Shown: positions 5,601 to 52,263 of the stretch, in pieces
Layout: each line of letters starts with the position of its first letter
Position numbering within the stretch: position 1 is the stretch's first letter
IMG/VR virus record: IMGVR_UViG_2703718819_000006
DNA: 64,000 bases
Origin: a virus
Lineage: Duplodnaviria > Heunggongvirae > Uroviricota > Caudoviricetes
Reading direction: 5' to 3' (one strand)
The notes under the pieces: model-generated
What the model saw: only the letters and a program-made list of their open reading frames with translations
Told to the model about the DNA's origin: nothing
Database searches by the model: none
Translations under genes and position numbers: made by a program

Positions 5601-5624
5601 ATTGGGCGGCGAAAGCCGCCCAAT
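5601..5624. terminator. perfect 10-bp stem hairpin ATTGGGCGGC-GAAA-GCCGCCCAAT
   Basis: Seen in sequence in gap between 5584 and 5630. Confidence 0.4.
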
Positions 5625-5629
5625 ATTGA

Positions 5630-22678: not shown

Positions 22679-23020
22679 TCAGGCTATTGCCATCACTGAT
22701 GCTCTCTGAATCTCTTGCTGGGCCACGCGGTTAACTTCCATCAAAGCCAGTTCGAGCTGATGTTCCGGCCACATTCTTTGAAATGCCACCCAGCCTTTTC
22801 CACGCTGGCGACGAACATTCATTACATAACGAGTAAAGGTGTTTTTATCGAAAGACACCGCTGTTTCACGGAACAGACGAATAGAGGTTCCATTGGCAAC
22901 GATGTCCAGCAAAGTTAATTGAGCAACCAGCGCAGGCTTCTCTTTTCTCTTCTGGTCTTTGTCCAGACCAAGAACCAATGATTTTTTCATCACAACTCCG
23001 TAAACAACTTGTTTTCTCAA
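22679..23020 (-). CDS. hypothetical protein
   Basis: 113 aa; family-1 motif upstream. Confidence 0.45.
   Translation of the reverse strand: MRKQVVYGVVMKKSLVLGLDKDQKRKEKPALVAQLTLLDIVANGTSIRLFRETAVSFDKNTFTRYVMNVRRQRGKGWVAFQRMWPEHQLELALMEVNRVAQQEIQRASVMAIA
23002..23017. promoter_or_regulatory. family-1 motif AAACAACTTGTTTTCT
   Basis: Overlaps/abuts start at 23020 region. Confidence 0.5.
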
Positions 23021-23965: not shown

Positions 23966-24229
23966 TGTATGGACCGAAGGCTGACCGTAGGGGTGTTACG
24001 GGGGATAAAATCAGGAGTTGAATAAATACGAAAAAGGAGGCGACACCCCTCCTTCCCTCCCCACTTATACATACCTGTCTTGTTCGCTATACATGTTGTG
24101 TTTTCTTCGTGTTTTATCTGTTTCAACCTCTCTATAGGCGTTAATGCTCACTCCTTCCAGAACGTTCTATACGGCGACTATTTCTGTTGGTGAATTGGGT
24201 GTGTTGTTTTCTCTGTCGGTGTATGTGGT

Positions 24230-24660
24230 TTCGTTCGTTTTGCGGTGGTTCTTCTATGGGGTGTTCTCGTCGTTTTGGTGATTGTTCTTCTCCGTGTATG
24301 GAGTAATGGCAGGTGGGCGATTCCTTTCGTTGTTGTGTTTGAGTTGTTTGTCTGGAGTGTGTGGAAGGCTTTTGTAGTTATTCGTGTATTGGGTAATGGC
24401 GTTTCCCGTGATTGTTATGTTTCGTGTCTTTTGGGGTTGAGAGAATCCTTGCGGTTACAGGCTTCGTTGGGTTTTCAGTGATTCTGGTGTTTCTTCGCTG
24501 TTTGGGGAATGGCGTGTCGTGGGTATCGCGCGTATGAATGTTTTCGGATTGCCTGTGAAAGTTAGGTTGGTTGTCCGGTAGCCTGGGGAGAAGAGGTGGG
24601 TCTTTTCGGTAGCCTGCCATAAAGAGGTTGGTTGTTTTTGGGAATGGCATTTGTGTTATT
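24230..24660. repeat. GT-rich strand-skewed region with ~100-bp periodic GG(G)TAATGGC(G) units
   Basis: Four units near 24290, 24385, 24497, 24637; plus strand almost devoid of A/C runs. Confidence 0.5.
24548..24645. repeat. ~30-bp direct repeats CGGTAGCCTG..AAGAGGTTGGTTGT (3 units)
   Basis: Seen in sequence; matches 21400-21485. Confidence 0.5.
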
Positions 24661-25028
24661 TAGTTGTTTTGTTATGCCTGAAAATAAGTTGTTTATATGG
24701 TTGTGTAACGCAACGGGAGCGATTTTGAGCGTGTGTTTTTGTTGGTAGTGTGTTGGGTCGTCTGTGGTGAAAATTGGACGCTGTGGCGCTGTCTGCTGCG
24801 TAGAGTTACGGGTATAAGAAGTGATGTGTGAAAACGTCAATTTTTTAGACCAAATCGGGTGAAAGCGTTGACGTTTCGTTGATCTGTTATTTAGTTGTTT
24901 TCTTATTTGTATAAACAACCATAACCTATTGATATTTAAGGGTATGATTGCAGGTATGGAAGTGGGGTAGTGGCGATCAACGGATTCTTATAGAAAAGAA
25001 TCAAATTGTGACCGCCATTATCAATGTT

Positions 25029-25763
25029 TTACATAGTTTTGTTTAGCAGAGAGAGAATTTCATCACTAATTTCACTCGCCTGTTTGATAGCCAATGCAGT
25101 TACCTCTTCTATGGTTGGTGACTGTTGATGCTCATGTTTGGTTTCAGTTATGACAATGTGTTCTTCACCTGAATTTGCGCATAGTGCCGCATTGACGATA
25201 AGGTTTGAGTAAGAATTTAGCAGAGCACTGTTGATGAACGCTTTCACGGTATTACTGTCTGCACCAAATACATCTTTTCTGACCGCTTCAGCCTCACAGC
25301 GAACCCCTGCAGCAACATCGTGAAGAACATGTATGGCCTTGGGGCTTGTTTGTTCACAGTACTCAATCATTATTGTCGAATTGTTCTGTTCAACAAACGA
25401 TCTGATGCCTGACGATTCACCCATAGCATCGAAGGCAGCGTGACCCGCACTGGTAGAGATATCTTCATAGAGTTCTTCATCGCTATCTTTTTCTTCAGGT
25501 GTCGAGGTGTCTTCATCGTCGTAATAGATATTGCCTTTAATCAGTGTTTTGGACACTTGATATAAACAATAAGAAACGAGATTTAAGCATTGGATTTTAG
25601 CTGTATTGTCCTTTGTCGCCTCGCTCTTCAGTTCTTTCGCTTCTTCAGTAAGGCTGTTGATAAGACTTTGTATTTTTTCCAACGCGTTAGGCGCACACTC
25701 CGCGTTGTCCATAAAGAATTTATAACCAGTCCCAGGGATTTCTAAACTTTTCAACTTTTTCAT
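25029..25763 (-). CDS. hypothetical protein
   Basis: 244 aa ORF, acidic stretches. Confidence 0.45.
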   Translation of the reverse strand: MKKLKSLEIPGTGYKFFMDNAECAPNALEKIQSLINSLTEEAKELKSEATKDNTAKIQCLNLVSYCLYQVSKTLIKGNIYYDDEDTSTPEEKDSDEELYEDISTSAGHAAFDAMGESSGIRSFVEQNNSTIMIEYCEQTSPKAIHVLHDVAAGVRCEAEAVRKDVFGADSNTVKAFINSALLNSYSNLIVNAALCANSGEEHIVITETKHEHQQSPTIEEVTALAIKQASEISDEILSLLNKTM

Positions 25764-25808
25764 TTCTTTGATAATCCTAAAAACAAACTACCAATGCTTT
25801 AATATCTG

Positions 25809-26117
25809 TTACCAGTTCCAGCACTCAAGCCCTTCAACGACTGGTGCTCCACAATCAAAATGTACAGAGTCAAAGCCTACATCAAGTACTTTCTGAATGT
25901 TAGCAATCGCGCCTTCGGATATACCATATCGACGCAAGTCGTCTTTCCAGACATCATCCTGTAACCCGGCGTGAACAATACAACCGCCATCAATTTGTGA
26001 AACCCAATCCAGCTCATTGCTTGCGATCATGAATCGGCGAGCATCTTCCTCTGATGTATGAGATGAACTGATCAATGCCACCTGGTAGGCTTGGGTAATG
26101 TTCAACATTTCAACCAC
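25809..26117 (-). CDS. hypothetical protein
   Basis: 102 aa; family-1 motif directly upstream. Confidence 0.45.
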   Translation of the reverse strand: MVEMLNITQAYQVALISSSHTSEEDARRFMIASNELDWVSQIDGGCIVHAGLQDDVWKDDLRRYGISEGAIANIQKVLDVGFDSVHFDCGAPVVEGLECWNW

Positions 26118-26121
26118 TCCG

Positions 26122-26137
26122 AAACAATTTGTTTTCT
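26122..26137. promoter_or_regulatory. family-1 motif AAACAATTTGTTTTCT
   Basis: Upstream of 26117 start. Confidence 0.5.
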
Positions 26138-26169
26138 TATGTGGCTTATTATCTCAATCAACAAAAGGT

Positions 26170-26186
26170 AGAAAACAAATTGTTTT
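26170..26186. promoter_or_regulatory. family-1 motif, opposite orientation (AGAAAACAAATTGTTTT)
   Basis: Forms inverted pair with 26122-26137; last phage-type element before host-type metG terminator. Confidence 0.5.
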
Positions 26187-26214
26187 AGGGCTTGTGTAAA
26201 TCAGGAGGGATTGT

Positions 26215-26250
26215 GTCTATATGAAAATGCCCAGCGTGTTGCCGGGCATT
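26215..26250 (-). terminator. metG terminator hairpin (AATGCCC..GGGCATT) + T-run
   Basis: Seen in sequence just downstream of metG stop. Confidence 0.5.
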
Positions 26251-26269
26251 GTGAAAAATGGTTGTTTAG

Positions 26270-28303
26270 TTACTTAACTTGGTGGCCTGGTTTAGCACCA
26301 GCATCCGGGCTTAACAGGAAGATATCTTTTCCGCCAGGGCCAGCAGCCATCACCATGCCTTCGGAGATACCGAAGCGCATTTTACGCGGTGCCAGGTTAG
26401 CCACCATAATGGTGTGACGACCAATCAGTGCCTGTGGATCTGGATAAGCGGAACGAATGCCTGAGAAGACATTACGTTTTTCTCCGCCGAGATCCAGTGT
26501 CAGGCGCAGCAGTTTGTCAGAACCTTCGACAAACTCCGCGTTTTCAATCAGTGCCACGCGCAGGTCAACTTTGGCGAAGTCGTCAAAGGTGATGGTTTCC
26601 TGAATCGGATCGTCTGCCAGCGGGCCAGTTACCGGTGCGGCAGCGGCTTTGACTTCTTCTTTAGACGCTTCCACCAGTGCTTCAACCTGCTTCATATCGA
26701 TACGGTTATACAGAGCTTTGAACGGATTCACTTTATGTCCCAACAGCGGTTGCTGGATACCATCCCAGGTCAGTTCCGTATTGAGGAATGCCTCTGCACG
26801 TTCAGTCAGTTTTGGCAGTACCGGTTTCAGGTACGTCATCAGCACGCGGAACAGGTTAATGCCCATAGAGCAAATCGCCTGCAGATCGGCATCGCGACCT
26901 TCCTGCTTCGCCACCACCCACGGAGCCTGTTCATCGACATAGCGGTTAGCCAGGTCAGCCAGTGCCATGATTTCACGGATAGCTTTACCAAATTCGCGGC
27001 TTTCCCATGCTTCGCCAATCACTTCAGCGGCATCAGTAAAGGTTTTGTACAGTTGCGGGTCAGCCAGTTCGCTTGCCAGCACGCCGTCAAAACGCTTGTT
27101 GATAAAGCCTGCATTACGGGAGGCCAGGTTAACCACTTTGTTCACGATATCGGCATTCACGCGCTGAACGAAATCCTCCAGGTTGAGATCGATATCATCA
27201 ATGCGCGAAGAGAGTTTCGCAGTGTAGTAGTAACGCAGGCTGTCGGCGTCAAAATGATTCAGCCAGGTGCTGGCTTTAATAAAGGTGCCGCGAGACTTGG
27301 ACATCTTCGCACCGTTCACCGTCACATAGCCATGAACAAACAGGTTGGTCGGCTTGCGGAAGTTGCTGCCTTCTAGCATGGCAGGCCAGAACAGGCTGTG
27401 GAAGTAAACGATATCTTTGCCGATGAAGTGGTACAGCTCGGCGGTAGAGTCTTTCTTCCAGTATTCGTCGAAGCTGGTGGTGTCGCCGCGTTTGTCGCAC
27501 AGATTCTTGAAGGAACCCATGTAGCCAATCGGCGCGTCCAGCCAGACGTAGAAATATTTGCCCGGCGCGTTCGGAATTTCAAAACCGAAGTAAGGCGCAT
27601 CGCGGGAGATATCCCACTGTTGCAGGCCGGATTCAAACCATTCCTGCATTTTGTTTGCCACCTGCTCCTGCAACGCGCCGCTGCGGGTCCATGCCTGCAA
27701 CATTTCGCTGAAAGAAGGCAGATCAAAGAAGAAGTGTTCAGAATCACGCATTACCGGCGTAGCGCCAGAAACCACCGATTTCGGTTCAATCAGTTCAGTC
27801 GGGCTGTATGTCGCGCCGCAGACTTCACAGTTATCGCCGTATTGATCTGGCGCTTTACATTTCGGGCAGGTGCCTTTTACAAAACGGTCCGGCAGGAACA
27901 TGCCTTTTTCCGGGTCGTACAGCTGAGAGATGGTGCGGTTTTTAATAAAACCGTTCTCTTTCAGGCGAGTATAGATAAGCTCAGACAACTGACGGTTCTC
28001 TTCGCTGTGCGTCGAGTGATAGTTGTCATAGCTGATGTTAAAGCCTGCGAAATCAGTCTGATGTTCCTGACTCATTTCGCCAATCATCTGTTCCGGTGTG
28101 ATACCAAGCTGCTGTGCTTTCAGCATGATTGGCGTACCGTGGGCATCGTCGGCACAGATGAAATTAACCTCGTGGCCGCGCATTCGCTGGTAACGAACCC
28201 AGACATCAGCCTGGATGTGCTCCAGCATATGGCCGAGGTGGATTGAGCCGTTAGCGTACGGCAGCGCGCACGTCACCAGAATTTTCTTCGCGACTTGGGT
28301 CAT
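26270..28303 (-). CDS. metG: methionine--tRNA ligase
   Basis: Translation from ATG at 28303 ([48 protein letters not shown]...) has class-I HIGH motif and KMSKS (GAKMSKSRG) and matches my recollection of enterobacterial MetG essentially residue for residue; the 43-aa extension in the ORF track is spurious. Confidence 0.95.
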
Positions 28304-28460
28304 AGTAGGCATTACTTCTTTGTAGTGAAAAGGGGCTTGATAGTAACAAAATGGCCTTATGTCTGCCATGTGATAACAGCATTTCTCATAAATGATTAAA
28401 TGTCGTAGCTGGAGTACACTACAAGGCGACAATTGCGCAAATTAAAATAAAGGAGACGGG

Positions 28461-29561
28461 ATGAGCGAGTCCAAATCGCCGGATGCCCTGAGAGCAATGG
28501 TAGCCGGTACGCTGGCTAATTTTCAGCACCCAACCCTGAAACACAACCTGACTACGCTTAAAGCGTTACACCATGTTGCGTTGATGGATGACACACTGCA
28601 TGTCGAACTAATCATGCCTTTCGTGTGGAATAAGCCTTTTGAAGACCTGAAAGAGCAATGTAGTGGTGATCTGCTCCGTATCACTGGCGCAAAGGCTATT
28701 GACTGGAAGCTGTCGTACAACATTGCCACGCTTAAGCGCGTCAAAAACCAACCAGGCATTAATGGCGTTAAGAACATTATCGCCGTCAGCTCAGGCAAGG
28801 GCGGCGTGGGTAAATCCTCCACGGCGGTAAACCTGGCACTGGCGTTGGCTGCTGAAGGTGCGAAAGTTGGTATTTTGGATGCCGATATCTATGGTCCATC
28901 AATTCCAACCATGCTGGGCGCGGAAAACCAACGTCCAACCTCACCTGATGGTACTCACATGGCACCTATCATGTCTCATGGCCTGGCAACCAACTCTATT
29001 GGTTATCTGGTCACCGACGACAATGCAATGGTGTGGCGTGGACCGATGGCAAGCAAGGCGCTGATGCAGATGTTGCAGGAAACTCTATGGCCTGATCTGG
29101 ACTATCTTGTTCTCGATATGCCGCCGGGCACTGGTGATATTCAGTTGACGCTGGCGCAGAACATTCCTGTAACTGGTGCTGTTGTGGTAACTACGCCGCA
29201 AGACATCGCGCTGATCGATGCGAAGAAAGGCATTGTGATGTTCGAAAAAGTCGAAGTGCCGGTACTGGGTATCGTCGAAAACATGAGTGTGCATATTTGC
29301 AGTAACTGCGGTCATCACGAGCCAATTTTTGGCACCGGTGGCGCAGAGAAACTGGCCGAGAAATACAACACGCAGTTGTTAGGCCAAATGCCACTTCATA
29401 TCTCACTTCGTGAAGATCTGGATAACGGAACACCAACCGTTATTAGTCGTCCAGATAGTGAATTTACGGCTATTTATCGTGACCTCGCAGATCGCGTTGC
29501 TGCCCAAATGTATTGGCAAGGTGAAGTAATACCTGGCGAAATCGCATTCCGCGCAGTGTGA
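28461..29561 (+). CDS. apbC: Fe-S cluster carrier ATPase ApbC/Mrp
   Basis: 366 aa; deviant Walker A SGKGGVGKS, CxxC (CSNCGH); divergent from metG as in enterobacterial chromosomes. Confidence 0.9.
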   Translation: MSESKSPDALRAMVAGTLANFQHPTLKHNLTTLKALHHVALMDDTLHVELIMPFVWNKPFEDLKEQCSGDLLRITGAKAIDWKLSYNIATLKRVKNQPGINGVKNIIAVSSGKGGVGKSSTAVNLALALAAEGAKVGILDADIYGPSIPTMLGAENQRPTSPDGTHMAPIMSHGLATNSIGYLVTDDNAMVWRGPMASKALMQMLQETLWPDLDYLVLDMPPGTGDIQLTLAQNIPVTGAVVVTTPQDIALIDAKKGIVMFEKVEVPVLGIVENMSVHICSNCGHHEPIFGTGGAEKLAEKYNTQLLGQMPLHISLREDLDNGTPTVISRPDSEFTAIYRDLADRVAAQMYWQGEVIPGEIAFRAV

Positions 29562-29564
29562 TAA

Positions 29565-29590
29565 AAAGGTGGTGCATTGCACCACCTAAA
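29565..29590 (-). terminator. hairpin AGGTGGTGCATTGCACCACCT with A/T-run
   Basis: Lies 5 bp after apbC stop and 10 bp after UmuD'-like gene stop; T-run is on minus strand. Confidence 0.45.
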
Positions 29591-29598
29591 CAGTTCTC

Positions 29599-29988
29599 CT
29601 ACATCACAGGACAATCATCAAACTCGCCACTTCTTGCGTCGTTGATAATGTGAGTGATCACACCAAACACGGCATTGCTGCCCGTGCATCCATCGTCATC
29701 CTTTGGCAATGCTTCCTTCTTACCAGTTCTTAAATCCTCCAGATGCTGACGTGGATACTTCCGGTATCTTTTTACGCGATATTCCCCATCCAGAGCGCAT
29801 ACAAGCAGAGAACCATCAACCGGGGTAAGTGAGGAATCGACCACCAGCAATGCGCCCTGCAATATTCCCTCACGATGATGGCTGTCAGCCGCTCTCATGA
29901 AGTAGGTCGCTGAAGGATGTCTAATTATCTGCTGATCAAGAGAAATACGGCTCTCAGCATAATCCGCCGCAGGAGAAGGGAAGCCCAT
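29599..29988 (-). CDS. UmuD'-like peptidase S24 family protein (pre-truncated form, HumD-like)
   Basis: 129 aa; begins GFPSPAADY... which aligns to the start of mature UmuD' (after the Cys-Gly self-cleavage site) as I recall E. coli UmuD; Ser (ADSH) and Lys (RVKR) positions retained. Confidence 0.7.
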   Translation of the reverse strand: MGFPSPAADYAESRISLDQQIIRHPSATYFMRAADSHHREGILQGALLVVDSSLTPVDGSLLVCALDGEYRVKRYRKYPRQHLEDLRTGKKEALPKDDDGCTGSNAVFGVITHIINDARSGEFDDCPVM

Positions 29989-30107
29989 AGCGTTTTGCCC
30001 TCAATACTGTTCATTTATACAGTATACATGAAAGAAGCTCACTAAGTGCAACTGATCGGTACATAGCACCAGACAAATGAACGTTATTTTCTCGAACAAG
30101 AAAAGGT

Positions 30108-30144
30108 AGAAAACAAATTGTTTAAGGCCACAACTAGTGGCCTT
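30108..30144. promoter_or_regulatory. family-1 motif AGAAAACAAATTGTTT fused to hairpin AAGGCCACAACTAGTGGCCTT
   Basis: Upstream of 29988 start; same composite element at 34379-34416. Confidence 0.5.
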
Positions 30145-30160
30145 AATGGAGAAGGGATGC

Positions 30161-30685
30161 TTATTGGCTATGGCTAAAAATCAAATGAGACACTTCATTT
30201 GGTTGTAGCTCGTCAAGATCCGGGGCCACAAAACCTTTTCCGAAAGACTTCACAAGTGATTCACCAGCCGCATCATTGTCACCTATTACGCGAAAGTCAT
30301 ACGGCAGCATTGCCAGTTGACGACGTAATCCTGCTGAGAAAGTCGAACCTAACAGCGCCCACGAATTTCCGCCCGCGTTGTGCACTGCTGCACTTTTAAA
30401 AATCGACTCAGTTATCCATATCGGTCCATCTTTTAAAGGAAGATAGGTTCCCCATAGTAGCTGTCTGCCGTGCGCTCGTGTGAAATACCGGGCCATCTTC
30501 GGATTGCTATGCTGCTTAGGAGCGCCTGGTCTGTATGTCTGATACCCGGCCAACATCCCATCAAACCTGTATAGAGGGAATGTAACAACTCCTTCGCTTT
30601 CATCGATCCACTGTCTATATGGATGCACATCATGGCGGTAGTTACGAGTTAGCAAATGAGCTTCCAGCTTTCCAAATTTAGTCAT
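30161..30685 (-). CDS. hypothetical protein, possible Toprim-like motif (VIGDNDAAGE); start at MTKFGK
   Basis: Internal ATG at 30685 avoids overlap with upstream gene. Confidence 0.35.
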   Translation of the reverse strand: MTKFGKLEAHLLTRNYRHDVHPYRQWIDESEGVVTFPLYRFDGMLAGYQTYRPGAPKQHSNPKMARYFTRAHGRQLLWGTYLPLKDGPIWITESIFKSAAVHNAGGNSWALLGSTFSAGLRRQLAMLPYDFRVIGDNDAAGESLVKSFGKGFVAPDLDELQPNEVSHLIFSHSQ

Positions 30686-30698
30686 AACTTCGCATCCC

Positions 30699-31514
30699 TC
30701 ATAACACTTCCCATTTATCACCATATTTCTCCATAGCTCTTAGCCAATAAACATGGCCACTAGGCATAGTGATGTGAGGCTCGCCAAACTCTTCTCCATG
30801 TACATCAAAGATGTCCCCAACAGAAAATTGGGGGATTTCTGTTCCGTTTTCACCTATATGTGTAATTCGTATACGTTTCGGTTGGGATTGTCCACCTTTG
30901 AGCGAGTTGTTCACTGCTCTGGCAATTTTCTCCCGCAATTGCTGCGTTCCGTGATACGTAACCGCAATATCCCGCAACTCGTTCACTAGTTCTCGAATTT
31001 GGTGATCTTTAAGCTCATTATTTGGGTGATTGGTAACAACTCTGGTTAATTCACCCTTGTCTTTTGCTCTTACGTATGCAGCTCTTGTGCATTCGACCCA
31101 TGTATTACCGCCTACATTAACTTCGTAGATTAGGCTGGACTTATCTGTCAATTCGGAACAAATACGGGCCGTGGTCTGGCAACTAGAGCATTCGCAGTTA
31201 TCGCGGAAACCGTGATCTACCGGTCGAGAAAGAGGTTTAACTTTTTCATCCAACTTCATCACAGCATCGTGATAAGCGTTCCAGCCGTCATCTTTACCAA
31301 GTTGATAAATCTCTGAAGGCTCCATGTAGTCTATATCGCAACCTTCTTCATCCGATCTATCTGGTCGCTTCCCTGGTAATCGCTCATAAAAACGATTTCT
31401 GTCTCGACGTTCGGCTCTCAGTGCTAACGCAAGAAGTTGCTCAAGCGAGGTATTTGCACCAGCAATAATTTCATTGAGAATATCTTCTGTGAGATCTTTC
31501 GCTACCGTGCTCAT
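30699..31514 (-). CDS. hypothetical protein
   Basis: 271 aa ORF. Confidence 0.4.
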   Translation of the reverse strand: MSTVAKDLTEDILNEIIAGANTSLEQLLALALRAERRDRNRFYERLPGKRPDRSDEEGCDIDYMEPSEIYQLGKDDGWNAYHDAVMKLDEKVKPLSRPVDHGFRDNCECSSCQTTARICSELTDKSSLIYEVNVGGNTWVECTRAAYVRAKDKGELTRVVTNHPNNELKDHQIRELVNELRDIAVTYHGTQQLREKIARAVNNSLKGGQSQPKRIRITHIGENGTEIPQFSVGDIFDVHGEEFGEPHITMPSGHVYWLRAMEKYGDKWEVL

Positions 31515-31894
31515 TTATCTCTCTCAGTATGTTGCGATGGCGTAAATTTGACGACATCAAATATTTTGGATGGCATCAACTTTATCCGCGAGCTTAGTTC
31601 GGCTCTTCTCTGTAATGCGGTTAATAATGTTTTCGTTCTGACGCCTTCGTGTATCCTCATCCCTGGCACAAGAACTACATCGCAGGGGAGATGCTCAGGT
31701 GACAAATCATTTTGGGCATCGCTAATCAGTCGTGTAATCTCTCTTTCAAGCCGACCGCCTAGCTCTGTTTTAGTGCAATGTTCTGACCAATCGCCAGCCT
31801 CAAGCAGCGCGAGAATGCTTAAAATATCGTCCAATAGATCAGTGGTATTATCGACTTCCTTCTGAAACTCACCGGCTACTGATTTATGCATCAT
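31511..31894 (-). CDS. hypothetical protein
   Basis: 127 aa ORF, overlapping stop/start. Confidence 0.4.
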   Translation of the reverse strand: MMHKSVAGEFQKEVDNTTDLLDDILSILALLEAGDWSEHCTKTELGGRLEREITRLISDAQNDLSPEHLPCDVVLVPGMRIHEGVRTKTLLTALQRRAELSSRIKLMPSKIFDVVKFTPSQHTERDK

Positions 31895-32544
31895 TCGTCA
31901 TCCTCATCCGAGTCATCCTCATCACAGGATGAGAGTAGTGGGTTAGTCATTCGCCCTACTTGAGTGGCGTAGCCACGCCGACAGAGATTGCGCAGCACAC
32001 TGTATATTTCGAACATCTCGGTTCGTTCATCGCCAACATCAAGCTCAGATGCTATAGCGTGGCATTCAGTCGCGAGAGCCGATATTTTCTGAAATAACTC
32101 TGCATTATTCACTGTTCGACTCCTGCGGCGTTCTGGTAGTGGCATCCAGTGTGTGACATTGCTAATCAGACCATATTCATTAGTTTGAGGATGGTTGCCG
32201 TTATCGTCTCCGTATTTAAGACTCTCCATAAAGCCATAATGCCTATCACCATTAACGCTCACAAAGCCGTAATAAGCAGGTATAACGCCGATCTCACACG
32301 TAACCAGTAAAGGAAAACTAGTTCTCCAATTTAGCTCGCCAATTACAGGCATTCGCTCACTACAGCTTATCCAACCATCCTTAGTTGCTGCTGTATTGGC
32401 ATAGGCCTTACGGTGCTTCTGTAGCTCTGCTGCAATCGCTCTCACGACTTCAACTGGTGCCCTTGCAGCAAACTCAATGTTGGTGATCAGCTCATTAAGA
32501 TATTTCTCGCTTGGGTAGCATTTCTTATTGTTAACGGTGGTCAT
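31891..32544 (-). CDS. hypothetical protein with poly-acidic C-terminus
   Basis: 217 aa; ends DEDDSDEDDE. Confidence 0.4.
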   Translation of the reverse strand: MTTVNNKKCYPSEKYLNELITNIEFAARAPVEVVRAIAAELQKHRKAYANTAATKDGWISCSERMPVIGELNWRTSFPLLVTCEIGVIPAYYGFVSVNGDRHYGFMESLKYGDDNGNHPQTNEYGLISNVTHWMPLPERRRSRTVNNAELFQKISALATECHAIASELDVGDERTEMFEIYSVLRNLCRRGYATQVGRMTNPLLSSCDEDDSDEDDE

Positions 32545-32765
32545 TAGATAGCTCTCTCAACAACAAGCAATTCGTCGTAGTCATAATCCGTTTCGGAACC
32601 ATCTGTACCGAACAGAGTCACTTTGTCACCTTCCATCCAGAAAGATTTAACCGCACATCGTTTGCCTTTAGATGTTATGACCACATCACCTGGGATTACA
32701 TCTTCAGCGCGAACTTCTACTGTTCTCATCATGCTGACCCTCTTTGGTGAAAACGCCTGATGCAA
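32544..32765 (-). CDS. hypothetical small protein
   Basis: 73 aa. Confidence 0.3.
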   Translation of the reverse strand: MHQAFSPKRVSMMRTVEVRAEDVIPGDVVITSKGKRCAVKSFWMEGDKVTLFGTDGSETDYDYDELLVVERAI

Positions 32766-33147
32766 TACTGTTTATGATGCTGTCAGTACAGGGAGTAGAA
32801 AGCTGGGCATCTCCAGCTATTTTCATGACTTCGACATCCGCATATCGAATACCGAGGTGTATCAGACCTGCTATACCTGACTTAAGTCGAACATTTTCCA
32901 TAAACAGATCCTTTTCCCGCTGTTTAACGGTCTCCAGCTCAACACGCAACTTCTCAATTTCGGCAGCCATGTAGTAACCAACCATAGCGAAAGTGGCGAA
33001 AGGGTAGTCAGAATCATCAGGAGATACGGAGGCCATTAGCAGACCATCGTGCATGTTCTGGCTTCCATCAGTGATGGATACCGCATAAGAATCGCTGGTT
33101 TCCCGTTTATACAATACGACGACCGGGTTCTTGATTTTCTCTCTCAT
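32704..33147 (-). CDS. hypothetical protein
   Basis: 147 aa. Confidence 0.35.
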   Translation of the reverse strand: MREKIKNPVVVLYKRETSDSYAVSITDGSQNMHDGLLMASVSPDDSDYPFATFAMVGYYMAAEIEKLRVELETVKQREKDLFMENVRLKSGIAGLIHLGIRYADVEVMKIAGDAQLSTPCTDSIINSIASGVFTKEGQHDENSRSSR

Positions 33148-33701
33148 TACGATGCCTCTAACTTGTCTAACTCTTTCAGCCCTTCACGTACCGCGTTCAC
33201 AATGCGTTCCAGATACTGGTATTTCGGGTTTGGTACCGTTGGCCAGTCGGCATACCACGGATCATCACCAAAGAGATTCAGCAGTTTGTTACCGACGCCG
33301 AAACAACAGCAGCTTTCTTTTACGTCATCGGCGTTTTCCGCCTCGTCCCACATTTCACGAGCCAGTACGGCGTCGATTTCTCTCTCTCTTCGTAACTTTA
33401 TGATTTCTGACTTCACGAAAAGCAGATTTGCATCGTTGTCATCGTCGACCGTGCTTAGCAGTTGAGGGTCGAAATTGTCGATTAGATAATCGTTGCTAAC
33501 TCGCTTAATGAACGTCTGCACATCATCACCGCCCATAGCAAACCAAGCCGCAGTCCACGCTTTTCCGTAGCAGGTGATGGTGATTCTTCCCTTACCAGGT
33601 TCGTAGTTTTCAATCATCACTCGAACCGGATCGAGACGCTCCAGCTCTGTCAACACAAAGGAAAGAACATCTATTTTTTCTACCTTCATGCAGCCTCCCA
33701 C
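33147..33701 (-). CDS. hypothetical protein
   Basis: 184 aa. Confidence 0.4.
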   Translation of the reverse strand: MGGCMKVEKIDVLSFVLTELERLDPVRVMIENYEPGKGRITITCYGKAWTAAWFAMGGDDVQTFIKRVSNDYLIDNFDPQLLSTVDDDNDANLLFVKSEIIKLRREREIDAVLAREMWDEAENADDVKESCCCFGVGNKLLNLFGDDPWYADWPTVPNPKYQYLERIVNAVREGLKELDKLEAS

Positions 33702-34327
33702 GCGCTCCAGATCAGCGATTTGTGTTTTTCATAACGTTTGATGTGTACCGGTTTCAGAAGCGCAATACCTTCAGTGACTTTCGCCTTTGCGCTTAATAAC
33801 AACGGGTGTTCTATACCTATCCTCTCCATGTACTCGACAACATCAGCGTTGGCACCAATCTCCTTCCCGTTAAAAAGTACGTCCAGCATCAGCTCTTTCT
33901 CTGCAAGGTAGATAGCTGAAAACTCAGGATCGCGACTCACGATAGAAGAGGTATTGTCGAGCAGGTCAGCCAGCTTGATCATGCGCGTCTGCATGTCGAG
34001 ATTTTGCTCCAGCTCCCGGACATTGATGATGAAACGCTGTATTCGATTGCCGTCTTCTGGCCTTGCAATGTTGGTCAGAGCCTGAACCATTTCAGCTACG
34101 TGATCACCGAAGTGATCACGAACCATCTCTATGGTTACATGGGTGTCTTCGACCACATCATGCAGAAGCGCCGCGATTTGCATCTCCACGGTTCCGTCAT
34201 GCAATGCAACAATCTCTCGGACAGCAACCGGGTGGTTGATGTAGTTTTCGCCGGTATATTTTCTTTTCTGACCAACGCCACCATGAGCGCCAGCGGCGAA
34301 CATATGTGCTTCGGAAATACTAGACAT
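33686..34327 (-). CDS. HD-domain phosphohydrolase, RelA/SpoT-type small alarmone hydrolase-like
   Basis: 213 aa; HPVAV...ALLHDVVEDT motif characteristic of (p)ppGpp hydrolase HD domains. Confidence 0.6.
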   Translation of the reverse strand: MSSISEAHMFAAGAHGGVGQKRKYTGENYINHPVAVREIVALHDGTVEMQIAALLHDVVEDTHVTIEMVRDHFGDHVAEMVQALTNIARPEDGNRIQRFIINVRELEQNLDMQTRMIKLADLLDNTSSIVSRDPEFSAIYLAEKELMLDVLFNGKEIGANADVVEYMERIGIEHPLLLSAKAKVTEGIALLKPVHIKRYEKHKSLIWSAWEAA

Positions 34328-44944: not shown

Positions 44945-45589
44945 CTAATGAACGGTCACTCGGCCACAGAACCGGTTTTCTATCTTTTCTACAGCGTTAT
45001 CTAGCATTCTCATCACTGATCTGGCTCTTGCTTCAACTGTGCGATACCGGTTGGAAACGACGAAGGTTTGCAGATCTCCCCTTTGCGGATGCAGGTGAAT
45101 TTTTGTCAGTTCCCCGCACATCAACGCATCAATACGAGCGACATACAGACGGTCTAATGATGCTCGTTGTGACCGCAAGTAATCTCGCTCTGAGAGAGCG
45201 ACCACCGGGCGTAGGCCAGCAATGGCGTTAAAGTTTGAAATAGCAGTTTTGTGGCAAAACTTTTCGATATCGAGGGCTAACTCAATACATCGATCTTCAT
45301 TGGTATGGCCGACCAAATCCAACGTGTAGGCCATAACATCAGCAGGTGTGCGATCGATAACAAAGCCTTCAGCACCACGCGTAAGTAGCTCTATATGCTT
45401 TGCTATTTCCATTTGAATCTGAAGCCGCTCATATAGAGGCATAGAATCACCTACTCGAACACCGAGGCGGCTCATCAAACTTCCGACACCAGCATCCACG
45501 TAAGGGATTCCGTAATGTTTGTCGATATATTTAGCCAGGGTTGTTTTCCCACTGCCCTGAGCACCAGTGATCCCAATCCGGTAATCCAT
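44945..45589 (-). CDS. P-loop nucleotide kinase (dNMP-kinase-like)
   Basis: 214 aa; N-terminal P-loop GITGAQGSGKTTLA; context next to DHFR/TS. Confidence 0.5.
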   Translation of the reverse strand: MDYRIGITGAQGSGKTTLAKYIDKHYGIPYVDAGVGSLMSRLGVRVGDSMPLYERLQIQMEIAKHIELLTRGAEGFVIDRTPADVMAYTLDLVGHTNEDRCIELALDIEKFCHKTAISNFNAIAGLRPVVALSERDYLRSQRASLDRLYVARIDALMCGELTKIHLHPQRGDLQTFVVSNRYRTVEARARSVMRMLDNAVEKIENRFCGRVTVH

Positions 45590-46065
45590 TACGACCTTCT
45601 GTATACGATCTGCGAAAAGCCAGGCTCTTCCTCGCTGGCTCGTTGGGTATAAGCTGTTTCAACAGGCACAAAGCCTAAATTACGCATCATGCTTGCCGGG
45701 AAGAATGCATCGGCGTTTGGCACATCAACGCCGATGTGGGAGAGCCAAATCTCTTCAACATGCGGCATGAATAGCGAGTAAATTTGTTCCCCGCCAATCA
45801 CCCACACAGGCTCTGGTAATCGCAACACATCATCCACACCAGCAGGGTAGAATCCATTTGGTACAAAGCCATGAGAGCGCGTCAAAACGAGGTTATGACG
45901 CTCTGGAAGAGGGCGTTTGAGACTTTCCATCGTTTTACGCCCCATAACGACAGTGGCGTTTTTGGTGAGTCTCTTAAATAGCTTCAGATCGGTAGAACAA
46001 CGCCAGGGCAGTTCGTTCGCTATGCCGATCTCATAGTTACGGCCAACAGCAGCTATCATCTTCAT
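45589..46065 (-). CDS. dihydrofolate reductase
   Basis: 158 aa; MIAAVGRNYEIG..LPW...VMGRKT...GRPLPERHNLVLTR pattern of DHFR. Confidence 0.8.
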   Translation of the reverse strand: MKMIAAVGRNYEIGIANELPWRCSTDLKLFKRLTKNATVVMGRKTMESLKRPLPERHNLVLTRSHGFVPNGFYPAGVDDVLRLPEPVWVIGGEQIYSLFMPHVEEIWLSHIGVDVPNADAFFPASMMRNLGFVPVETAYTQRASEEEPGFSQIVYRRS

Positions 46066-46476: not shown

Positions 46477-47580
46477 TCACACCGCCACTGGAACCTTGAT
46501 CCACGGTAGAGGGGCATAGCCAAGAATAAGAATCTCGTCCCATTTGAAATCATCCAGCTCAGACCATTCATTAGGGAATATAACGACCGGATCTGAATGC
46601 TCTGGAGCCTGTCGTTGCATTAGCTCACACACACCTTCCATGTGGTTGTTGTACAAATGCACGTCAAAGCCAAAATGCACAAATGCACCGGCCATGTGAC
46701 CCGTAATCTTCGCGAGAAAATGAGTGAGAATGCCATAGCCAGCAATATTGAATGGCATACCAACAAAAGTGTCTACGCTACGCTGTACGAGGCAGGAGTT
46801 GAGGATGCGTTTGGGGATTCCAAGTTCATCCAGTTCAGTTTCAGTAACACTGCCGTCCATCTCCAGATCGTATAGCATCTTGGTGTAGATAGACTCATAA
46901 CCGAGGCGACTGTGTTGAAGACCAATGTCAGTTGCCATCGTTAAACGGGTTTCAAAATCCAGTTCACGACTCCACAAAGAGAAGACAAAGTGGCAAGGTG
47001 GCAGTTTCATATCCTCAAGCTCGCCTACGTTCCATGCGTTAAGCATGATGCGACGATCGGTAGGGTTCGTGCGCAGTGTATCGACAATACGCTGTAGCTG
47101 ATCGATTTCACGGGACAGCACTACGCGATCTTCACTGATACCCAGGTATCCCTCGACTTTGTACCCGCGTTCACGGAAAGTAGCGATCTTGCTCAGATAT
47201 TCACTATGGCTCACGATGCGGGTATCTTCCCATCGACGCCACTGCTTACCGTAAACCGGCCCCAAATCGCCATTCTCATCGGCCCATGCATCCCAAATCT
47301 TAACGCCGTTATCCTTGAGAAATTGGATGTTGCCCGTGCCTTTCAGATACCACTCAAGTTCGACAAGCAGTGGCTTAAGATTTACCGCCTTTCCAGAAAT
47401 AAGCGGCACAGTCCCACCAGTAAGCATGTAGTAAGAGGGAACGTAGCAGGTGCTTAAAGTACCAGTGCCTGTGCGATCATCAGCCTGCACGCCGCTTTTA
47501 AGCACCGTCTCAATAACTTTTGCATACGATGCGTTTGTTACCTGACCGTTCGTATGCTCACGATTCAAAAGGAGTGACAC
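46477..47580 (-). CDS. thyA: thymidylate synthase (ThyA-type) with two insertions relative to host enzyme; start likely GTG 47580
   Basis: DRTGTGT, catalytic LPPCH, VGMPFNIAGY motifs; ORF-track start (47607) lies inside family-2 palindrome, GTG at 47580 has GAGG SD. Confidence 0.8.
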   Translation of the reverse strand: MSLLLNREHTNGQVTNASYAKVIETVLKSGVQADDRTGTGTLSTCYVPSYYMLTGGTVPLISGKAVNLKPLLVELEWYLKGTGNIQFLKDNGVKIWDAWADENGDLGPVYGKQWRRWEDTRIVSHSEYLSKIATFRERGYKVEGYLGISEDRVVLSREIDQLQRIVDTLRTNPTDRRIMLNAWNVGELEDMKLPPCHFVFSLWSRELDFETRLTMATDIGLQHSRLGYESIYTKMLYDLEMDGSVTETELDELGIPKRILNSCLVQRSVDTFVGMPFNIAGYGILTHFLAKITGHMAGAFVHFGFDVHLYNNHMEGVCELMQRQAPEHSDPVVIFPNEWSELDDFKWDEILILGYAPLPWIKVPVAV

Positions 47581-47595
47581 AAAAACCTCACAAAG

Positions 47596-47611
47596 ATAAG
47601 TAACCACTTAT
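47596..47611. promoter_or_regulatory. family-2 palindrome ATAAGTAACCACTTAT
   Basis: Upstream of TS start. Confidence 0.4.
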
Positions 47612-48698: not shown

Positions 48699-49841
48699 TT
48701 ACAGGTCTGCAAACTGGCTTAGAGAAGCCTTATCCACGGTAGAATCGATCTGACCTACCAGATATGTGCTTTGCTCTGCCTCTTGTGGTGCAATTTGCAG
48801 TGTGTCGGTTAACAACCACTTGTTCATCCAGACCAGCGGATCAGTGGTAACTTCTGGAAATAAAGCCTTCAGGCCAAGACGATTCATAGCCAGATTGGTG
48901 CGGTATTTTACATAGGTTTTGAGAATATCCGCGTTTAAACCAATCATCGAACCGTCTTTGAAGAGATAGTCGGCCCAGTTCATTTCTTGTTCGGCGACTG
49001 ATTTCATGGTGTCGTAAATGACGTTTTCTTCATCAGCAGCAATCTCTTTCCACAATAAACCTTCGCGACCGGTACGCATGAAGCGGATCATGCGTTCAGT
49101 TCCTTCGCAATGCAGAGCTTCATCACGGGCAATAAAGCGCATAATTTTGGTGTTACCCTCAAGCAACTTCCGTTCACCAAAGGCAAACGTACATGCAAAA
49201 CTTACGTAGAAACGGATCGCCTCAAGCGCATTAATGGACACCAACGTGCGGAAAAGCTGACGATGCAAAGGGTATGGCTCCCAGCCATATTCATTTACGT
49301 ACAGACGCTCAAATTCCTTCTCACCTAACGACTGGCGCTCGCAGGTCATCCCATAAAGCCTGTCATATTCAGCAGAGATACTGATCGCTCGGTTGATGAT
49401 TTCTTCATCCGTAACAATACCGTCAAAAACAATACTCGGATCGTCCACCATGCCACGAATAATGTGGGTGTAGCTGCGGCTATGGATAGTCTCAGAGAAA
49501 GACCACGTTTCAACCCACGTTTCCAGTTCAGGAATAGAGATAAGCGGCAGCAGCGTTGCATTTGGACTACGTCCCTGAACTGAATCGAGTAACGTTTGAT
49601 AACGGAGATTGCTCAGAAAAATGTGACGTTCGTGGTCCCGCAGCTTCGTGTTGAAGTCGATACGATCGCTCGAAATATCAACTTCTTCCGGCCGCCAGAA
49701 GAAAGACAATTGACGTTCAATCAACTTTTCAAAATCACGGTATTTTTGCTGATCGTAACGTGCCACGTTGACAGATTGTCCGAGGAACATAGGCTCTTTG
49801 GTTGCATCATTAGCACCCAAACGGAACGTTGAATATGACAT
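48699..49841 (-). CDS. nrdB: ribonucleotide reductase class Ia beta subunit
   Basis: 380 aa; closely matches recalled E. coli NrdB incl. [19 protein letters not shown], diiron-site helices, C-terminal YLVGQIDS. Confidence 0.9.
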
Positions 49842-49947: not shown

Positions 49948-52263
49948 TCAGATTTTGCAGGCTCCGTCGCACTCATCTTCTGGCTCGACGGCTACAGCTT
50001 GCGTCAGTGGATTCTGCGGTTCGTCGTCATCACGCTTTCCTGCCCCATCTCTGGTGTTGTGGTAGTAAAGCGTTTTAACTCCCATCTTGTAGGCGAGAAG
50101 CAAATCTGACAGTAGCGTCATCATTGGGACTTTATCGCCTTCAAAGCGAGAAGGGTCATAGTTGGTATTGGCTGAAATAGCCTGGTCAAAGAACTTCTGG
50201 ATGATCGCCACCTTTGTCAGATAGCCGCGGTTGTCCGGCATATCCCACAGGTATTCATACTGTTCCTTCAGTTTTTCAAACTCAGGCACGACCATCTTGA
50301 CGATGCCGTCCTTAGAAGATTTCACTGACACCGGGCCACGAGGCGGTTCGATGCCGTTGGTGGAATTAGTGATCTGGCTGGAAGTCTCGCATGGCATTTG
50401 TGCCGTCAGTGTGGAGTTGCGAAGGCCGTATTTTGCAATACGTTCACGCAGTTCTTCCCACGGCATCTTTAACTCAAAGTTGGTTTCGCCACTTTCGTCT
50501 AATGAAGAACGGTAATGGTCGATCGGCAACTGACCAATTGCGTATTTGGTCTGCTCAAACCAGTCACACTCACCTTTTGCTTCAGCAAGTCGGCAGCTGG
50601 CATCAAGAAGGTAATACTGGATAGCTTCGAACGTTTCATGCACCAGTTTATTGCCAGCGGTATCAGAATAACGAACGCCATTCTTTGCCAGGTAATAAGC
50701 AAAGTTGGTTACACCAATTCCCAAGCTACGACGAGCTTTGGCAGGCACTTCGGCTGCCTCCATCGGATAGTCTTGATAATCCAGTAACGAATCCAGTGCA
50801 GCAACGGCATAGAACGCCACCTCTTTAAGAGACTCCAGTGAACGGATGGCTCCGAGGTTAAAAGCGGATAAAGTGCATAGCGCGATCTCACCGTTCGGGT
50901 CGTCGGTAAATGCCAGTGGACGGGTGGGTAGGGTGATCTCCATACACAGGTTTGACTGGCGAACAGGTGCAAGAGCAGGAATGAAAGCGCCATGCTCATT
51001 AATATGATCGACGTTCGCAATATAAATTCGGCCCGTGGACGCTCGTTCCTGCATCAGAGATGAGAACAGCTCAATGGCAGGTACTGACTTCTTGCGAATT
51101 GAATCATCGGCTTCGTATTTATGGTACAGCTTTTCAAACAGCTCCTGGTCTGTGAAGAAGGCTTCGTACATATCAGGCACATCATGCGGGCTGAACAGAG
51201 TGATGTTCTCGCTTCTGACGAGTCGACGGTACATTAGACGGTTACTCATGACGCCGTAATCAAGATGGCGAACGCGGTTTTCATCAATACCACGGTTATT
51301 TTTCACCACCAGCAGACTTTCAACTTCAAGATGCCAGATCGGGTAAAACGCTGTTGCTGCGCCACCACGAACACCACCTTGCGAACAAGATTTAACAGCC
51401 GTCTGGAAATGCTTCAGGAATGGAATAACTCCAGTATGGGTGGCTTCACCATTGCGGATCTCGCTGCCCAGCGCACGGATACGGCCAAAACCAATACCAA
51501 TTCCAGCACGACGTGAAACGTAGTCGATAATTGCGGCTGAAGCTGCACTAATCCCTTTCAGACTATCGCCAGACTCAATCAGCACACAACTGGAGAACTG
51601 ACGGGTTGGAGTACGGACGCCGGCCATGATTGGTGTGGGCAGAGACAGTTTGAACGTACTTGTAACGTCATAGAAACCTTTGACCATCTCCATACGTGTT
51701 TTGCCAGCGCAGTCGTCTTCCCAATTCTGGAACAGACACATGCCTACCAGCATATAGATATGTTGCGGTCCCTCATGAATCTCACCAGTAACACGGTTTT
51801 GAACGAGGTATTTGCTTTGCAACTGCACCGTAGCTGCATAGCCAAAAAGATCGTCACGTTTCGGCTTAATGTAATTGCCGAGTTCTTCGATCTCTTCAAA
51901 CGAATAATGTGTCAGCAAATCCTTGTCATAAACGCCCTTGTTAACGTTCTTGACAATGTGTTGGTAGAAGTTCGGATAGTCGTAACGACCGAAGGCATCT
52001 TTGCGGATTTTAAAAATGTTCAGGCGGGCAGCCACCTGTGAGTAATTTGGTGCTTCTGGTGAGATCAAATCAGCGGCAGATTTAACCAAAGCCTCATGCA
52101 ACTGGCTGGTGGTCATCCCATCAAAAATGCTGGCCGCAGCTCCCATTGCTACAGCGGATGCGCTTACACCACGAATGCCTTCTACGCCATACATTACGAC
52201 GCGGTTGTATTTTTCTTCGGATAACGGCTCTGTTTGGCCGTTACGTTTTACGATGCTTATCAT
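49948..52263 (-). CDS. nrdA: ribonucleotide reductase class Ia alpha subunit
   Basis: 771 aa; ATP-cone N-terminus, active-site region SSCVLIE..., NLCMEI, C-terminal Cys pair (CDGACKI). Confidence 0.9.
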   Translation of the reverse strand: MISIVKRNGQTEPLSEEKYNRVVMYGVEGIRGVSASAVAMGAAASIFDGMTTSQLHEALVKSAADLISPEAPNYSQVAARLNIFKIRKDAFGRYDYPNFYQHIVKNVNKGVYDKDLLTHYSFEEIEELGNYIKPKRDDLFGYAATVQLQSKYLVQNRVTGEIHEGPQHIYMLVGMCLFQNWEDDCAGKTRMEMVKGFYDVTSTFKLSLPTPIMAGVRTPTRQFSSCVLIESGDSLKGISAASAAIIDYVSRRAGIGIGFGRIRALGSEIRNGEATHTGVIPFLKHFQTAVKSCSQGGVRGGAATAFYPIWHLEVESLLVVKNNRGIDENRVRHLDYGVMSNRLMYRRLVRSENITLFSPHDVPDMYEAFFTDQELFEKLYHKYEADDSIRKKSVPAIELFSSLMQERASTGRIYIANVDHINEHGAFIPALAPVRQSNLCMEITLPTRPLAFTDDPNGEIALCTLSAFNLGAIRSLESLKEVAFYAVAALDSLLDYQDYPMEAAEVPAKARRSLGIGVTNFAYYLAKNGVRYSDTAGNKLVHETFEAIQYYLLDASCRLAEAKGECDWFEQTKYAIGQLPIDHYRSSLDESGETNFELKMPWEELRERIAKYGLRNSTLTAQMPCETSSQITNSTNGIEPPRGPVSVKSSKDGIVKMVVPEFEKLKEQYEYLWDMPDNRGYLTKVAIIQKFFDQAISANTNYDPSRFEGDKVPMMTLLSDLLLAYKMGVKTLYYHNTRDGAGKRDDDEPQNPLTQAVAVEPEDECDGACKI

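Follow-up and report, generated by a model that had tools for sequence, protein, structure and literature searches.

Does a small ORF on the minus strand of this viral DNA encode a UmuD' protein that is complete as translated, and what would such a protein do for the element that carries it? The DNA analysed here, referred to as the window, is a single stretch of 64,000 nucleotides. The locus is occupied by a single ORF of 129 amino acids plus a stop, which starts at an ATG and whose product begins MGFPSPAADY (ORF list). A sequence-only reading had described this product as a UmuD'-like protein truncated in advance, that is, one that lacks the N-terminal arm of UmuD and needs no RecA-mediated cleavage. 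The analysis reported here supports that description and places the ORF in the HumD family. The feature is already known, in that HumD is a curated NCBIfam family, there is experimental work on the P1 orthologue, and GenBank and RefSeq already contain identical proteins. The features of the locus are collected in Table 1.

Table 1. Features of the humD locus and its surroundings. Positions are those of the window.
Feature	Position	Strand	Remarks
humD coding sequence	29599..29988	minus	pre-truncated UmuD' homologue, 129 aa
HumD protein, complete 129-aa sequence			MGFPSPAADYAESRISLDQQIIRHPSATYFMRAADSHHREGILQGALLVVDSSLTPVDGSLLVCALDGEYRVKRYRKYPRQHLEDLRTGKKEALPKDDDGCTGSNAVFGVITHIINDARSGEFDDCPVM
Ser36 codon	29881..29883	minus	equivalent to UmuD nucleophile Ser60; motif ADSHH, not GDSM
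Lys73 codon	29770..29772	minus	equivalent to UmuD general base Lys97
Codons 120-129, SGEFDDCPVM	29602..29631	minus	acidic/hydrophobic extension past the UmuD end
Shine-Dalgarno-like GAGGG	29998..30002	minus	9 nt upstream of the humD ATG; read from sequence
LexA (SOS) box, predicted, TACTGTATAAATGAACAGTA	30005..30024	minus	20 bp, ends 16 nt upstream of the humD ATG
Intrinsic-terminator-like hairpin, then TTTTTATCACA	29567..29587	minus	11 nt past the humD stop; terminator scan
Terminator-like hairpin	30122..30146	minus	3' of the upstream toprim-domain gene; terminator scan
Nucleotide homology with P1-type phages	29609..30035	minus	85.6-88.9%; ORF plus ~47 nt of upstream control region only
apbC	28461-29561		directly downstream of humD, convergent; stop at 29561, 37 nt from the humD stop
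metG	26270-28303		beyond apbC, divergently transcribed

Translation of the same frame upstream of the ATG reads ...INEQY*GQNA-MGFPSP, in which a TGA precedes the ATG by 5 codons and the interval contains no other start codon. A longer, cleavable HumD product is therefore impossible, which disposes of the sequence-only reading's own reservation that the true start might lie further upstream. In the alignments Gly2 of HumD paired with Gly25 in UmuD (PDB chain 8gmt_B) and residue 1 in UmuD' (1umu), so that, apart from its initiator Met, the ORF opens where UmuD' does, as had been claimed. Methionine aminopeptidase normally takes off an initiator Met that is followed by Gly, which would leave HumD with an N-terminus identical to that of UmuD'. 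No Ala/Cys-Gly self-cleavage site of its own is present N-terminal to the S24 domain, the protein starting at the Gly that follows the cleavage site.

The similarity to UmuD spans the whole protein and is not limited to a short segment, the other possibility that the sequence-only reading had allowed for. Residues 25-139 of K-12 UmuD (query taken from the K-12 genome record) matched window positions 29985-29632 in a tblastn search with 42% identity (E 3e-26), and the best matches among sequences of solved structures were UmuD' 1umu (E 7e-23) and UmuD 8gmt_B (E 7e-22), with alignments that extended to query residue 116-118. In the family alignment R139, the last residue of UmuD, paired with R119 of HumD, and the terminal beta-strand is kept (VFGVITHIIN in HumD, VFGVVIHVVK in UmuD). 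The divergent C-terminal tail of about 50 amino acids that had been proposed thus survives only in part. The alignment with UmuD' reaches residue 118-119, but a poorly conserved stretch at about residues 77-106, which includes a 4-residue insertion (loop at 100-103), and a 10-residue extension past the UmuD C-terminus (120-129) do set HumD apart. The C-terminal part of HumD is a normal UmuD' fold with a family-specific extension of 10 amino acids, not an unrelated tail.

Structure prediction agreed with the alignments. An AF2 model computed from a shallow alignment (97 sequences, all at least 67% identical) had a pLDDT of 61.6, and a model based on 62 diverse sequences was used instead; its mean pLDDT was 75.9, with values of 84-88 in the core. 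Strands were predicted at residues 28-32, 47-51, 61-66, 69-76, 82-85, 91-93 and 107-115, and the loop at 98-104 was of low confidence. The best PDB matches to this model were the UmuD' structures 1umu and 1ay9 (target-normalised TM 0.76-0.77, rmsd ~3.0 A over ~110 columns). The C-terminal domains of LexA and lambda cI also matched, with lower rank.

Profile searches assigned the protein to the HumD family. The NCBIfam equivalog model NF051876 scored 219.8 bits where 120 is the cutoff (E 8e-66), residues 1-129 aligning to positions 1-129 of the 129-position model, and at such an E value the assignment is no chance match. Pfam Peptidase_S24 (PF00717) scored 37.9 bits, above its gathering threshold of 23.3. 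The model for the UmuD subfamily (NCBIfam NF007621 / PRK10276, Pol V autoproteolytic subunit) gave 87 bits, below its cutoff of 110; judged by these scores, the protein is a UmuD homologue, not a member of the UmuD subfamily. Some databases name relatives of HumD as LexA repressor, an assignment that we rejected: the corresponding model (TIGR00498) scored 27.2 bits against 110.95 and matched only at model positions 91-166, and a protein of 129 amino acids leaves no room for the N-terminal winged-helix DNA-binding domain of a LexA-like architecture.

HumD has numerous relatives, 561 of them at E <=1e-5 in a 90%-clustered collection, and at 50% clustering there were 3,416 hits at E <=1e-3. The motif G[FY]PSP directly follows the initiator Met in 106 of 120 relatives among the matches listed. 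Most of the longer relatives (148-223 aa) look like start-codon miscalls, in which an upstream start was added before an internal M-GFPSP. The same MGFPSP start, the same length and a LexA box are found in P1, in N15-like and P2-like elements and in others, in quite different contexts. The protein studied here is 100% identical to CYRAN_98 of Escherichia phage Cyrano (pLF82) and 91.5-93% identical to HumD of P1-like phages (phage records).

The region upstream of humD points to control by the SOS response. The 20-mer in Table 1 is identical to the site annotated in P1 (AF234173) as the LexA binding site of lxr/humD; its CTGT-N8-ACAG is intact, and it is the sole match in the 64-kb window to the LexA 20-mer consensus at <=3 mismatches, where 0.01 would be expected. 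Two relatives, an N15-like element of Klebsiella and a P2-like prophage of Citrobacter, likewise have LexA-box-like sequences upstream of humD. Expression of humD here is expected to be SOS-dependent, judging from this site. The sequence-only reading had called the protein constitutively active, which is correct for the missing cleavage step but not for expression, since the predicted LexA box would give SOS control; Pol V activity itself also needs RecA. In the literature humD is described as a LexA-regulated SOS gene (PMC9603915). A simple scan found no consensus sigma-70 promoter over the LexA box. The hexamer TTGCAC occurs ~45 nt upstream of the ATG here and in P1 alike; we do not call it a promoter.

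The Shine-Dalgarno-like site is kept as GAGG in P1 (pairwise alignment). The hairpin that follows humD, between it and the convergent apbC, has a 9-bp stem with 6 GC pairs and then TTTTT. With this terminator of its own, and a hairpin that closes the toprim-domain gene, humD is a separate small transcription unit.

The element that carries humD is a phage-plasmid of E. coli. The window is collinear, at 95-99% identity, with E. coli plasmids of ~108 kb such as NZ_JBSTRA010000003.1, and is not chromosomal. Among its near relatives is phage Cyrano, the pLF82 of E. coli LF82; Cyrano makes virions and is a siphovirus phage-plasmid of the SSU5-like kind (PMC9928086). The complete related plasmid encodes tail, capsid and terminase proteins, ParB-family partition proteins and RepA (PGAP annotation), together with NrdAB, thymidylate synthase, DfrA51, ligase, primase and helicase; its own RecA and a DnaE-type polymerase are encoded outside the stretch covered by the window. 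At the DNA level the humD stretch is shared by the E. coli relatives Cyrano, CMS-2020a and PhiR41_1, and is absent from Salmonella phage SSU5.

A cognate UmuC partner, for which the sequence-only reading had suggested looking elsewhere in the element, is absent, as it is in P1. The best tblastn match to K-12 UmuC had an E value of 9.9 in the window and 1.6 in the near-identical 108-kb plasmid. The PGAP annotation of the related plasmid lists no Y-family polymerase, and no Y-family polymerase domain was found among ten ORFs (187-418 aa) scanned with Pfam. With no umuC on the element, HumD must use the UmuC of the host.

We consider it very likely that humD encodes a UmuD' surrogate which the SOS response induces and which, partnered with host UmuC, does without RecA-mediated cleavage. 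In an uninduced lysogen, LexA bound at the predicted box just upstream would keep humD off; upon DNA damage LexA would be cleaved and HumD made. HumD would then dimerise and bind host UmuC to form a Pol V-like translesion polymerase, as its 91.5% identity to P1 HumD suggests. The slow, RecA-filament-mediated self-cleavage of UmuD, which normally delays Pol V, would be bypassed, and the element, supplying no UmuC, would depend on that of its host. For the phage-plasmid the likely benefit would be that lesions in damaged plasmid or phage DNA are bypassed earlier during SOS, with the mutagenesis that this brings, at a time when the prophage would likely be induced too. The sequence analysis itself covers the layout of the gene (start, stop, LexA box and terminator), its family, the UmuD' fold, purifying selection and the lack of umuC; that HumD dimerises, binds UmuC and RecA, affects mutagenesis and benefits the phage we infer by analogy. 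P1 HumD reportedly dimerises, associates with UmuC and with RecA filaments, and makes recA430 lexA(Def) cells mutable again; it is also said to be poorly expressed and to complement well only from a high-copy plasmid. In a CRISPRi screen humD was non-essential for P1 lytic growth (PMC10695390), so any benefit from humD would be conditional.

HumD might instead act mainly as a modulator or inhibitor that titrates UmuC, caps RecA filaments or heterodimerises with host UmuD or UmuD', in which case host SOS mutagenesis or recombination would be damped, or checkpoint timing shifted, in favour of the phage-plasmid. We regard this as improbable. DinI is a regulator of RecA filaments, and in N15-like and P2-like elements a dinI-family gene is transcribed away from humD, with LexA-box-like sequences shared between the two; in P1 the partner of humD is lxr. 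Neither dinI nor lxr, however, has a homologue in the window or in the related plasmid. The recA gene of the complete relative would fit such a role, as would the finding that elevated UmuD'C inhibits RecA-mediated recombination (PMC5342242). Against this, the title of McLenigan 1999 (PMID 10559166, PMC94175) states that P1 HumD facilitates SOS mutagenesis, and the protein studied here is 91.5% identical to it.

Returning to the UmuD' surrogate, a further question is whether the protein retains any protease activity. In the family alignment Ser36 and Lys73 of HumD correspond to Ser60 and Lys97 of UmuD, and the two positions are kept, as the sequence-only reading had said; Ser60 and Lys97 are the active-site residues of UmuD (PMC5342242). 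Among 107 close family representatives the Ser36 position holds S in 58%, T in 40% and A in 2%, and Lys73 is K in 98% of close family members. In 27 distant pre-truncated representatives (50% clustering) the Ser position is occupied by T, A, P or H, and Lys is often replaced by R, V or C. From this pattern the catalytic dyad looks vestigial, and the pre-truncated lineage, which does not need self-cleavage, seems to have lost selection for catalysis. That HumD is still an active S24 serine protease in trans, one that cuts the arms of host UmuD in heterodimers for example, or else some other LexA-like repressor, is accordingly a reading in which we place very little confidence. It would draw on the retention of Ser36 and Lys73 at catalytic positions and on the ability of UmuD active sites to cut the arm of a partner in trans in heterodimers (PMC5342242). 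Yet the canonical GDSM is replaced by ADSHH, the UmuD subfamily score lies below its cutoff (87 vs 110), and the replacements of Ser and Lys among relatives, both close and distant, speak for no selection on catalysis across the clade and so argue against a role as trans-protease. A metal site formed by H37, C64, H82 and C126, conserved in closer relatives, was also considered and dropped, as the more distant of the pre-truncated relatives do not retain the four residues.

The stretch past the end of UmuD is strongly conserved. Along this C-terminal tail the family alignment has E at 99%, F at 98%, D at 99%, D at 95%, C at 92%, P at 98% and V at 93%, and relatives 40-52% identical to HumD carry the variants GEFDDVPVM, GEFDDTPF, EFDAEPFLI, EFDERPCI, EFDEIPCI and EFHDNLPF. 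Of 19 complete pre-truncated representatives at 50% clustering, 7 have the tail; none of 29 UmuD-like representatives with an arm (N-extended) has it. Residues 120-129 appear in the AF2 model as a low-confidence coil, and the tail is probably flexible. Its pattern (acidic, Phe, acidic, then Pro and a hydrophobic C-terminus) resembles the tip of SSB, ...PPMDFDDDIPF (read from K-12 ssb), which recruits partners, including Pol IV (PMC3401449). We raise, as a tentative and rather doubtful suggestion, that the tail may dock HumD and its bound UmuC onto proteins that read the SSB tip, or onto UmuC itself, and so give the phage version a route to stalled forks in place of what the arm had provided. 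A literature search on HumD found no discussion of the tail, which McLenigan 1999 may nevertheless have noted. The function of this HumD-specific acidic tail is the one remaining question that we think worth an experiment.

Comparison with P1 gives a measure of the age and constraint of the gene. The two proteins differ by 11 substitutions (A11V, I21L, L66M, D67E, V72I, R87S, K96V, C101Y, G103C, I114V and M129I), mostly conservative and with several in the variable loop (residues 96-103). The genes share 84.9% nucleotide identity, with dN 0.042, dS 0.87 and dN/dS 0.048, which points to an old divergence under strong purifying selection. On these values humD is neither a pseudogene nor a recent transfer, and recent acquisition from P1 in particular is ruled out by the dS and the nucleotide identity. 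The extent of homology with P1-type phages given in Table 1 was defined by megablast (query window 24000-34000, matched query positions 5610-6036). In the pairwise alignment with P1, identity begins ~45 nt upstream of the ATG and ends at the stop codon.

The host-derived block that the sequence-only reading had placed next to humD does adjoin it, the stop codons of apbC and humD lying 37 nt apart. This metG-apbC block is ~90% identical to the chromosomal metG-apbC locus, which each of 5,426 complete E. coli genomes has, and among the same genomes 222 plasmid records carry the block at 95-99% identity. The notion that humD is a functionless 5'-truncated umuD remnant of the recombination that inserted this block fits its position directly at the edge of the captured host genes but is almost certainly wrong and, on the conservation data, already refuted: the MGFPSP start, length and LexA box recur in P1, N15-like, P2-like and other elements in different contexts, dN/dS is 0.048, humD comes with a Shine-Dalgarno site and a terminator of its own, and its truncated end points away from the host block.

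E. coli SSU5-like phage-plasmids of the Cyrano/pLF82 type carry a predicted SOS-inducible, cleavage-independent accessory subunit of Pol V. The gene is carried alongside the element's own replication and nucleotide-metabolism genes, which in the complete relative include recA and dnaE. Elements with humD could make damage-induced mutagenesis stronger or faster in clinical E. coli, a matter relevant to the evolution of resistance under stress. What this adds to the known humD of P1 is modest and lies in the context, the setting of an SSU5-like phage-plasmid.

Relative to E. coli UmuD' (UmuD residues 25-139; 1umu, 1ay9), HumD has the same first Gly and keeps the Ser and Lys positions. UmuD' is the product of RecA-mediated cleavage, whereas HumD is made directly by translation and lacks the 24-residue N-terminal arm of UmuD, which carries the cleavage site and partner-binding sites. 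Around the active-site Ser, UmuD has GDSM and HumD ADSHH. Both umuD and humD are preceded by a LexA box (the umuDC box, read from K-12, is TACTGTATATAAAAACAGTA), but umuD forms an operon with umuC and humD does not.

The closest characterised counterpart is P1 HumD (AAQ14181.1, P1 genome AF234173), which is likewise 129 amino acids long, has the same MGFPSPAADY start, and is described as a shortened UmuD that is activated from the outset (PMC7092418, citing McLenigan et al.). Neither gene has a partner umuC, and the C-terminal tail GEFDDCPV(M/I) is common to both proteins. The spacer between LexA box and ATG is 16 nt here and 19 nt in P1. In P1 humD is flanked by lxr, divergent and upstream, and by phd-doc downstream, whereas here a same-strand toprim-domain gene lies upstream and the captured apbC-metG block downstream. 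The carriers also differ, P1 being of the P1-like myovirus type and the present element an SSU5-like siphovirus phage-plasmid.

More distant counterparts are the UmuD-like proteins of N15 (gp26), phiKO2 (gp23), HK-type lambdoid phages and P2-like prophages, which are 62-71% identical to HumD, 127-129 amino acids long, also pre-truncated, and share its tail motif. In the N15-like and P2-like elements humD is found where the tail-fibre module ends, next to the divergent dinI-family gene; the window has no dinI. MucA, RumA, ImpA and SamA are UmuD homologues of plasmids and ICEs, SOS-regulated, that serve as accessory subunits for Y-family polymerases. Compared here by description only, they are borne by mobile elements as HumD is. 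Unlike HumD, proteins of this type are full-length, need cleavage, and are encoded in an operon with their own UmuC-type polymerase (PMC7092418 and general knowledge).

Two catalytic positions decay progressively across the pre-truncated clade in the family alignment. The Ser at query residue 36 of the window HumD, aligned with Ser60 of UmuD, is replaced by Thr, Ala, Pro or His, and the Lys at residue 73, aligned with UmuD Lys97, by Arg, Val or Cys. We regard the clade as a natural case of a protease domain turning into a pseudo-enzyme after loss of its sole substrate, its own arm. Several database entries for HumD relatives (P0023, P0024, P0031, P0046, P0048, P0070 and P0082) are longer, at 148-223 aa; some of them stand for hundreds to more than 1,000 member sequences, and some carry the name "LexA family transcriptional regulator". 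Most include an internal M-GFPSP behind the added N-terminal stretch. Judged by their sequences, these entries appear to reflect wrongly called start codons and transferred names, rather than cleavable full-length forms.

Two genes lie upstream of humD, one of 187 aa, annotated in relatives as a toprim-domain protein, and the other a hypothetical protein of 271 aa; a Pfam scan of both returned no match. Beyond them, window 31.8-33 kb shows the lowest conservation relative to the related complete plasmid NZ_JBSTRA010000003.1 and holds Ead/Ea22-like genes, which are common to lambdoid and P1-like phages. A second match to CTGT-N8-ACAG was found at window 22861-22876 (CTGTTTCACGGAACAG). This candidate LexA site was set aside as probably a chance match, as its centre is not AT-rich, no TA flanks it, and the window contains 2 matches to the pattern against 0.8 expected.

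The divergent metG and apbC/mrp pair (window 26270-29561) is a captured host gene copy, which gives the phage-plasmid a second MetRS and an Fe-S carrier. Nucleotide identity to the chromosomal locus, present in 5,426 of 5,426 complete E. coli chromosomes, is about 90%, and the homology stops at the gene ends; 222 E. coli plasmid records carry the block at 95-99% identity. Elsewhere in the window, a dihydrofolate reductase ORF forms part of a nucleotide-metabolism cluster with thymidylate synthase and NrdB/NrdA. The annotation at its position in the related plasmid is DfrA51, a trimethoprim-resistant dihydrofolate reductase (PMC12217456).

In this related plasmid, a phage-plasmid of the window's type, genes for a RecA of its own and for a Pol III alpha subunit of the DnaE type lie outside the part covered by the window. 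Counting HumD, two of the three components of Pol V Mut have homologues in the element, namely UmuD' and RecA; UmuC is missing.

Coordinates of features in the window and in related elements
Feature	Location	Strand	Remarks
metG	window 26270-28303	minus	methionyl-tRNA synthetase
apbC/mrp	window 28461-29561	plus	
Toprim-domain protein (name in relatives)	window 30161-30724	minus	187 aa
Hypothetical protein	window 30699-31514	minus	271 aa
Dihydrofolate reductase	window 45589-46065	minus	158 aa
Other ORFs listed with dihydrofolate reductase	window 46477-47607, 48699-49841, 49948-52263		
RecA and DnaE-type genes	NZ_JBSTRA010000003.1 (L005) 100231-101304 and 104281-107799		
humD and divergent dinI-family gene	L007 5682-6384		Klebsiella N15-like linear plasmid-prophage
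humD and divergent dinI-family gene	L010 5439-6390		Citrobacter P2-like prophage
Mirror-image locus	L007 5682-12384		GCA_040064345.1 contig JBEAIB010000022.1, 108.6 kb

Relatives of humD also occur in the Klebsiella element L007, where the order dinI-humD-sopB-parA is followed a few kb away by its mirror image, parA-sopB-humD-dinI. This arrangement looks like a head-to-head dimer of an N15-like linear plasmid of about 54 kb, or like assembly read-through of its hairpin telomere. In L009, a telK-type protelomerase gene adjoins the dinI-humD-sopB-parA cluster. Both L007 and the Citrobacter prophage L010 pair humD with a divergent dinI-family gene, with LexA-box-like sequences between the two, and in both the pair directly follows the tail-fibre genes, a moron-like position. 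The combination of DinI with a pre-cleaved UmuD' may be a recurrent phage cassette for SOS tuning.
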